IMG/VR virus record: IMGVR_UViG_2667527959_000006
Coordinates: 1-11,176 of that record
Length of the DNA: 11,176 nt
Direction: 5' to 3' (one strand)
Origin: a virus
Lineage: Duplodnaviria > Heunggongvirae > Uroviricota > Caudoviricetes
A model generated the notes under the pieces. It ran no database searches and had not been told where the DNA came from. It worked only from the letters and a program-made list of their open reading frames with translations. Within the stretch, counting starts at the first letter, position 1; each line of letters starts with the position of its first letter. Positions 1 through 921 of the stretch are shown here, one piece after another. The translations under genes and the position numbers were made by a program.

Positions 1-57
1 ACTGGAGCACCTCAAAAACACCATCATACACTAAATCAGTAAGTTGGCAGCATCACC
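1..57 (-). mobile_element. Terminal segment of a canonical IS1 (left end with 23-bp inverted repeat); element body lies beyond the window start
   Basis: Reverse complement of 1-57 is GGTGATGCTGCCAACTTACTGATTTAGTGTATGATGGTGTTTTTGAGGTGCTCCAGT, which I recognise as the IS1 left end up to the insA GTG start. The window begins inside that start codon, so insA/insB would read leftward off the window. Confidence 0.85.
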
Positions 58-206
58 TGTAAACCAATTAATTATTAGGATGGTATTAATAATATAGAGT
101 AAAAAATAACACTAAGGCCAAATCGCAACCAGAAACAACTGCGCAGTATAAAACACGGGTAGTGTATCCAATTAGTAGAACATGTGTTTTTCGATAAACG
201 CTCCGA

Positions 207-612
207 TCACTTTTTCGTGGATCTCAACTGAGCGTGAGAAGCAGATTGTTTTTTACGAGCCAACCGCTTAATGCGGGTGCGTAGCGTCAGATTATTACGC
301 TCAATGCGTTGGGTGAATATTTTGCCGGTCAGATGCTTATTCTTCGGCACCACCCGGCCATAGCTGCCCCTGTCATCGCTGGTGAGCATGCCGATGTTGA
401 AGGGTGTAAGCAGTGCCAGTAGCTCCCGGCACGTTTGATCGGTTCGGGGACCAAAAGTGTAGGCCAGTACACCGCCTGTTTTGGTGTTGTACGCGTACCA
501 GAGCCAGTGTTGCCGGCAACGTAGCTCCATTGCTCATCAAGCTCGCAGATAAGCGCCACATCAGCGTGGGCAACAGGCGAAGAAGTTATTCGCGTTGGCG
601 CGAGTTTTTTAA
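207..612 (-). pseudogene. insB: insB-like IS1 transposase frame, disrupted by a frameshift
   Basis: Homology to IS1 InsB is split across two frames: ...KKLAPTRITSSPVAHADVALICELDEQWSYVAGN (ORF 329..559 frame) then RQHWLWYAYNTKTGGVLAYTFG...TQRIERNNL (ORF 207..530 frame). Against my recollection of IS1 the junction is about 10 nt shorter (near 505-525), consistent with a frameshifting deletion. Confidence 0.6.
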
Positions 613-867
613 AGTCCGGATGACGGTGTTAATACCAATTTTCAGTGTCCTGGCGGTATCGCGAACCCCGGCACCATTAAAGGCCATTTCAGTGATCAGC
701 TCTTTCATACCCGGCTTACGTGCTTGATAAGTATAAGTGAGCTGAAACACACGGTGGCAGTCACGGCAGCGAAATCTGTCACGGCCTTTAGGGTTTTGAC
801 CATGGCGGTAAACCCGAGCTAACTGACAACGGGGACAATGAATATTAACGCTGGTTATGAGATAACC
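586..867 (-). pseudogene. insA: insA-like reading frame (93 codons) without a canonical start codon
   Basis: Minus-strand translation ITSVNIHCPRCQLARVYRHGQNPKGRDRFRCRDCHRVFQLTYTYQARKPGMKELITEMAFNGAGVRDTARTLKIGINTVIRTLKNSRQRE aligns with IS1 InsA (zinc-finger-like CPxC...C..C plus helix-turn-helix). The codon where IS1 has its GTG start is ATA here, and no ATG/GTG/TTG lies at the N-terminus, which is why the ORF track lacks it. Confidence 0.55.
604..613 (-). other. Conserved IS1-type programmed -1 frameshift motif (TTTAAAAAAC) at the insA/insB junction
   Basis: Minus strand reads ACTTTAAAAAACTCG at the end of the insA-like frame, the same A6C slippery heptamer context IS1 uses to make InsAB'. 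Confidence 0.5.
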
Positions 868-921
868 TCAAAAGCCCGTATTATACATCAGATTCAACTA
901 ATTAGAGGCATCACCAGAAAT

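Follow-up and report, generated by a model that had tools for sequence, protein, structure and literature searches.

A defective ISEc30-like element and a later canonical IS1 at the edge of the ssb-hxr variable region in a P1-like phage-plasmid fragment

The left-hand end of an 11,176-nucleotide stretch of viral DNA (IMG/VR record IMGVR_UViG_2667527959_000006; positions 1 to 11,176), referred to below as the window, carries the end of a canonical IS1 and, beside it, a 758-bp relic of the IS1 family that abuts the darA-operon terminator of a P1-like backbone. Judged by its sequence, the relic is a recently inactivated copy of a separate IS1-family species, ISEc30-like, and not a drifted IS1. 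It is defective, and it was in place before IS1 arrived. The right-hand edge of the variable region RD-2 in this lineage was probably built up in three layers: a P7-type backbone, a dead ISEc30-like copy and a later IS1.

RESULTS

Features at the left end of the window

The following features were identified; lesions in the relic were called against the consensus of three intact copies in a multiple alignment.

1-57, minus strand: terminal 57 bp of canonical IS1, IRL (insA-proximal) end, 100% identical to the IS1 end of P1
58-66: right-hand copy of the 9-bp IS1 target duplication, TGTAAACCA, recognised from TOK-001, L015 and CP057733
58-157: AT-rich spacer of 100 bp, ~32% G+C, in relatives the distal upstream region of a porin gene
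158-915, minus strand: defective 758-bp ISEc30-like IS1-family copy (intact length 766 bp), from alignment and Pfam
158-180: IRR of the relic, a single base substituted at 165 (T; C in all other copies), from alignment
249-254: T6 run (A6 in IS orientation; four in intact copies), a +2 change giving a second frameshift near the insB 3' end, from alignment
516/517: junction left by the loss of 10 bp (GCAGTAAAGC in IS orientation), which puts insB out of frame, from alignment
586-858, minus strand: insA-like frame (Zn ribbon and HTH), open but lacking an ATG start, from translation and Pfam
604-612, minus strand: A6C -1 frameshift motif TTAAAAAAC, intact, aligning with the IS1 motif
856-858, minus strand: lost insA start, ATA versus ATG in intact copies, from alignment
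893-915: IRL of the relic, the same as in intact copies, from alignment
921-950: perfect hairpin with a 10-bp stem, within the darA-operon terminator region of the P1 annotation
1016-1324, minus strand: hxr (named odaA in P7), the final gene of the dar-region operon
1314-4301: ddrB, which follows hxr

Canonical IS1 and its target site

Reverse-complemented, bases 1-57 read as the left end of IS1 (GGTGATGCTGCCAACTTACTGAT...), and in a sequence alignment they match the IS1 annotated in P1 with 100% identity over 57 bp, the match extending up to 59 bp (1-57(59)). A canonical IS1 terminus had been recognised here in the preliminary description, which also placed the two elements in the same orientation, and both points are borne out. 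As insA is annotated beside the matching IS1 end in P1, the IS1 of the window lies on the minus strand, as does the relic, and runs leftwards out of the window; the window begins within IS1, the remainder of which lies to the left with its other end outside.

The plasmid of TOK-001, which is 99.9% identical to window 1-3297, carries a whole IS1 at the same position with TGTAAACCA on either side, and the 9-bp target duplication assigned to the window IS1, alongside its terminal identity, is the one seen in this near-identical plasmid. Two relatives have the same site empty: metagenome contig L015 has a single TGTAAACCA, no IS1 and an identical relic, and CP057733 has a single TGCAAACCA, no IS1 and the relic at the same site. 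The whole IS1 with its duplication in TOK-001 and the empty sites in L015 and CP057733 together show that IS1 arrived later, by a simple transposition into the DNA upstream of the porin gene. As both of the latter sequences hold the relic with an uninterrupted IS1 target, the relic preceded IS1. The comparison of relatives for empty sites and duplications that had been proposed as a check thus yielded both for IS1, and of the earlier proposal that an old insertion was later joined by a modern IS1, the order of arrival and the defective state of the relic stand, while its portrayal as an old, drifted IS1 does not.

In a sister lineage, represented by the ATCC 98082 plasmid and the IMG/VR contig L013, an IS3-family element lies ~20 bp to the left of the IS1 target, in place of IS1. 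This insertion near the IS1 target shows once more that the spot attracts insertions. The IS3-family element is ~1.33 kb in length (L004 ~4647-5977 and L013 1-58). The direct repeat on either side of it, ATCATGATCACGAAAACAC, measures 19 bp, a long one for a target duplication of the IS3 family.

The spacer between the two elements

In relatives, a P7-type porin gene (ompC/nmpC) is located to the left of IS1, and the spacer is the distal part of its upstream region. The two elements had been described as nested and separated by about 100 bp of AT-rich DNA; the spacing and composition were as described, but neither element lies inside the other and they are simply neighbours. Positions 58-78 are homologous to P7 and JL22, and positions 79-157 are specific to the window lineage. 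No carriers of 60-157 were found beyond 6 plasmids, 1 viral contig and 2 metagenome contigs, and in each it adjoins the relic. No occurrence of 79-157 without the relic was found in a distant-mode search of complete E. coli genomes and phages or in a plasmid search, nor in exact 22-mer scans, two of them covering one genome per species, one covering viral contigs and one metagenomes.

The possibility that 79-157 is a diverged allele of the P7 spacer was considered and set aside, as the local alignment was collinear but not significant (28 of 300 shuffles scored as high). Matches of other copies of the IS that ran on into 130-157 were put down to chance similarity between AT-rich target sites. 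An Rfam search of 1-1100 returned nothing below E = 0.5, and a promoter and terminator scan gave chance level at most.

Both IS1 and, in the sister lineage, the IS3-family element come between the porin gene carried by the phage and the distal part of its upstream DNA, and either insertion could in this way alter porin expression.

Identity of the relic

The terminal inverted repeats of the relic (158-180 and 893-915) are 23 nt long and 74% complementary and begin with GGT(G/A), as expected for the IS1 family. Its minus strand encodes an InsA-like frame along with parts of one resembling InsB, and the translated pieces match the Pfam models Zn_ribbon_InsA, HTH_Tnp_IS1 and DDE_Tnp_IS1 (PF03811, PF12759 and PF03400) with E values from 6e-18 to 7e-47. 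The relic thus has both the InsA part (Zn ribbon and HTH) and the InsB' DDE domain of an IS1-family element, and the A6C motif lies between insA and insB'. Recognisable terminal repeats and a conserved A6C motif had both been reported from inspection, and both are present; a lack of IS1-family similarity in 158-915, named beforehand as grounds for abandoning that assignment, is contradicted by the Pfam matches.

Intact copies of the same element encode a 231-aa InsAB' fusion, and the NCBIfam IS1 transposase model NF033558 scored 260 bits on an intact relative. The InsAB' of the intact relative shares 44% identity and 65% positives with that of IS1; these are the measured counterparts of the 50-60% similarity estimated by eye for the relic. 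At the DNA level the element and canonical IS1 are only ~53% identical. The relic is, however, 96.5-98% identical to intact 766-bp copies, one of which, in Escherichia phage Rac-SA53 (GenBank accession number KU052037; found by megablast), matches it end to end at 96.5% identity. The annotation of KU052037 records an IS1-family element with an 8-bp duplication, a programmed -1 frameshift and a transposase labelled IsEc30; the name ISEc30 as applied to the relic is taken from this depositor's annotation rather than from comparison with an ISfinder reference. ISEc30 is among the IS1-family members listed in PMC12077207.

A query made up of window 58-1016 matched 1,269 of the 5,426 complete E. 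coli genomes, with as many as 44 matching places in one genome; this search would not detect canonical IS1, whose identity of 53% is too low. In E. coli, ISEc30-like copies occupy ~2,000 places. Because intact copies 96.5-98% identical to the relic are widespread, the 53% identity to IS1 is a distance between species of IS. The view of the relic as an old, diverged IS1 is therefore not upheld, since against intact ISEc30-like copies it shows ~2% substitutions and three disabling lesions.

Lesions of the relic

The earlier reading that insA has no canonical start and that insB is frameshifted was confirmed by the alignment: the start codon is ATA at 856-858, leaving insA with no efficient start, and the insB frame is broken twice, by the 10-bp deletion at 516/517 and by the +2 insertion at 249-254, so that the intact insB-like frame that would have overturned the reading was not found. 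An in-frame TGA lies four codons upstream of the insA ATA, and hence there is no alternative upstream insA start. Other changes are the substitution at 165, which alters the IRR, and about a dozen further scattered substitutions, several of which are also polymorphic among the intact copies. With no ATG and two frame-breaking indels, the relic lacks the full InsAB' coding of an autonomous element and is therefore unable to make InsAB'. It is defective and is presumed immobile by its own means.

The same 758-bp sequence was found in the ATCC 98082 plasmid (L004), in L015 and, with no gaps, in L013, and the copy in TOK-001 differs from that in the window by 2 substitutions. As the 758 bp are identical in three other independent records, the lesions are not assembly errors.

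Distribution of the lesions among other copies

Three of the lesions were traced in other copies of the element, as follows.

Window lineage: insA start ATA; 10-bp deletion present; A-run A6
CP057733, same P1 site (L005 6098-6867): insA start ATA; 10-bp deletion absent; A-run A6
Small plasmids of 3.7-5.1 kb (L012 537-1292): insA start ATA; 10-bp deletion present; A-run A4
S1-CAM-01-A chromosome (L018 2179-2934): insA start ATG; 10-bp deletion present; A-run A4

The 10-bp deletion was found in only 13 of the 694 E. coli records that carry this stretch of the IS, and inspection of the alignment showed no microhomology flanking it. The ATA start, the deletion and the A6 run occur in combinations that are incompatible across the copies, which argues that the relic did not simply decay in place, and the mosaic suggests that IS copies on separate replicons have undergone gene conversion with one another. 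It is possible, though somewhat doubtful, that the defective lineage (ATA and/or the 10-bp deletion) represents non-autonomous copies that have exchanged sequence, or have been moved, among small mobilizable plasmids, a chromosome and P1-like phage-plasmids. In that case, the way the lesions are shuffled among copies would directly record either gene conversion among co-resident replicons or mobilisation in trans.

The CP057733 copy also has an 11-base run of C on the strand shown (L005 ~6287-6297; 11 G in IS orientation) where GGGTGGTG or GGGAGGTG is found elsewhere in IS orientation, and this could be either a real mutation or a homopolymer artefact. All four CP0577xx records have the same reported length and identity.

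The relic boundary and the darA-operon terminator

The 9-bp sequences flanking the relic are TAAAACACG and AGAAATGGC, and the 8-9 bp duplication typical of the IS1 family is absent, in agreement with the earlier statement that the relic has no flanking direct repeats. Intact copies in three other records (L002, L009 and L010) have clean 8-bp target duplications. Decay of a former target duplication was rejected as the cause, as the flanks share too few of the 9 positions in an element with only ~2% substitutions.

Homology to P1 restarts at window position 917 and homology to P7 and JL22 at 919, placing the breakpoint 1-3 bp outside the IRL end of the relic, at the edge of the darA-operon terminator as annotated in AJ000741. 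To the left of the breakpoint, ~122 bp corresponding to the 3' end of isaB are common to P1 and P7 and absent from the window lineage. On the other side, the porin gene and the sequence upstream of it are homologous to P7 as far as window position 78.

Context of the window in P1-like phage-plasmids

Positions 917-11119 are 98.6% identical to P1 24,146-34,347; this part takes in hxr, ddrB, ddrA and darA and reaches as far as cin and the tail-fibre segment. An IS26 end (GGCACTGTTGCAAA...) makes up the final 57 bp (11120-11176). With an IS1 end on the left and an IS26 end on the right, the window is a P1 fragment enclosed by two insertion sequences, an arrangement to be expected when such a fragment is carried in a hybrid plasmid. 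The closest complete relative, the TOK-001 plasmid (L003), has no counterpart of window 3298-7636 (part of ddrB through lydB), indicating that the P1 fragment has been further deleted there.

The relic lies between ssb and hxr/ddrB, and relatives have ssb and ompC upstream of it, which places it in the region of difference RD-2 of P1-like phage-plasmids (PMC6906374). The same interval is described as variable region 2, which is AT-rich and a suggested integration hot spot (PMC9603915). Its content in related elements is as follows.

P1: isaA-IS1-isaB
P7 and JL22: porin gene (nmpC/ompD) and a 740-bp spacer
RCS47: IS26, isaA and an ISSod13-family transposase
CP057733 (IncY): ssb - ompC - relic - hxr - ddrB

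The arrangement in CP057733 is the one that underlies the window. The preliminary description had pointed to an insertion hot spot and a cargo or recombination boundary beside the dar operon; the locus is indeed an IS-rich cargo boundary, with contents between ssb and hxr that differ in P1, P7, JL22 and RCS47, and the hot spot was already in print as RD-2 and variable region 2 (PMC6906374, PMC9603915). The combination of porin gene, relic and later IS1 is not mentioned in either PMC6906374 or PMC9603915.

In OGJH01000143, a metagenome contig of the CP057733 type, a further ~1.3 kb is inserted within or beside the porin gene (L016 9271-10601), another insertion event in the same variable region.

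DISCUSSION

Assembly of the region

The proposed history begins with a P7-type backbone, in which a porin gene of the ompC/nmpC type stands where P1 has isaA-IS1-isaB. An ISEc30-like element would then have inserted at the edge of the darA-operon terminator and become fixed immediately outside it. Elements of the IS1 family are well known to cause adjacent deletions, and a deletion of this type, proceeding from the IRR end of the relic, would have removed one copy of the target duplication together with a few hundred bp of the spacer. Later, a canonical IS1 transposed into the AT-rich DNA upstream of the porin gene, at a distance of 100 bp from the relic IRR, its arrival producing the 9-bp duplication TGTAAACCA. 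Insertion followed by adjacent deletion is the simplest account of both the missing duplication and the missing P1/P7 DNA. The deletion is put forward as a probable event and not as one directly shown, because no relative with 79-157 but without the relic was found.

Alternative explanations

The main rival to adjacent deletion supposes that two ISEc30-like copies, inserted at the terminator edge and at 157/158, underwent homologous recombination, which would also have removed the duplication. ISEc30-like copies clearly do exchange sequence, given their incompatible combinations of lesions, and 79-157 has no detectable homologue in P7, JL22 or P1. However, for recombination of this kind the IS would have had to insert twice, independently and in one orientation, within a single spacer of ~500 bp, and the DNA to the left of position 78 (the porin gene and its upstream region) is ordinary P7-type backbone with nothing demonstrably foreign in it. 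Recombination between two copies is thus considered unlikely, and adjacent deletion is preferred.

The relic could still be mobile as a non-autonomous element, moved in trans by intact ISEc30-like copies or by the neighbouring IS1, or the IS1-spacer-relic unit could move as a composite; the relic has kept its terminal repeats almost unchanged, its IRL and that of IS1 have the same outermost 8 bases, and copies bearing the 10-bp deletion are found in unrelated contexts (the 3.7-5.1 kb plasmids and one chromosome). Nevertheless, none of the 3 deletion-bearing copies examined (window, L012 and L018) has a target duplication, and hence no trace of transposition by a defective copy was seen; the relic occupies a single identical site in every P1-like carrier, and IS1 transposase acts preferentially in cis. 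Such mobility is therefore very unlikely. Still less probable is descent of 158-915 from an ancient canonical IS1 by decay. The identity to IS1 of only 53% in DNA and 44% in protein (for the intact relative), and the presence of disabling lesions, are what decay might produce, but intact 766-bp copies with full frames and 8-bp duplications are widespread at 96.5-98% identity, so that decay has only about 13 substitutions and 3 lesions to explain. That the frameshifts are sequencing or assembly errors in an intact element is next to impossible. One lesion is indeed a change of homopolymer length (A4 to A6), and the 11-G run in the CP057733 copy is suspicious, but the identical 758 bp recur in the independent assemblies of ATCC 98082, L015 and L013, the TOK-001 copy differs by just 2 substitutions, and neither the 10-bp deletion nor the change of ATG to ATA is of the homopolymer type.

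The layered history, with a dead ISEc30-like copy in place before IS1, fixes the right-hand boundary of RD-2 in the window lineage at the outer edge of the darA-operon terminator, and provides a relative dating for the two IS arrivals, relic first and IS1 later. The fragments annotated here by RefSeq as 'IS1 family transposase' belong to a dead ISEc30-like copy and not to IS1. Beyond annotation, the significance of the finding is slight.

Comparison with known elements

All parts of the arrangement are of known kinds, namely a dead copy of an abundant, known IS beside a canonical IS1 in a published variable region, and the arrangement is an ordinary one. The ISEc30-type copy in Rac-SA53 and the relic share their terminal repeats, the insA / A6C / insB' layout and their length class. 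The relic differs from it in the ATA start of insA, in the 10-bp deletion and 2-bp insertion in insB and in one IRR substitution, and the Rac-SA53 copy has an 8-bp duplication whereas the relic has no target duplication. The relic and canonical IS1 are alike in family architecture, and their IRLs begin with the same 8 bases.

The 768-bp IS1 of P1 has an IRL end identical to window 1-57. It lies between isaA and isaB (P1 22626-23393), in the same variable region but with flanks other than those of the window IS1, and the two are independent insertions; both have the same orientation relative to the dar operon. RD-2 as known from P1 (isaA-IS1-isaB) and P7 (nmpC-odaA) is the same AT-rich, IS-rich interval between ssb and hxr, with a content that varies from one element to the next, and in the window lineage that content is a P7-type porin gene, an ISEc30-like relic and a later IS1.
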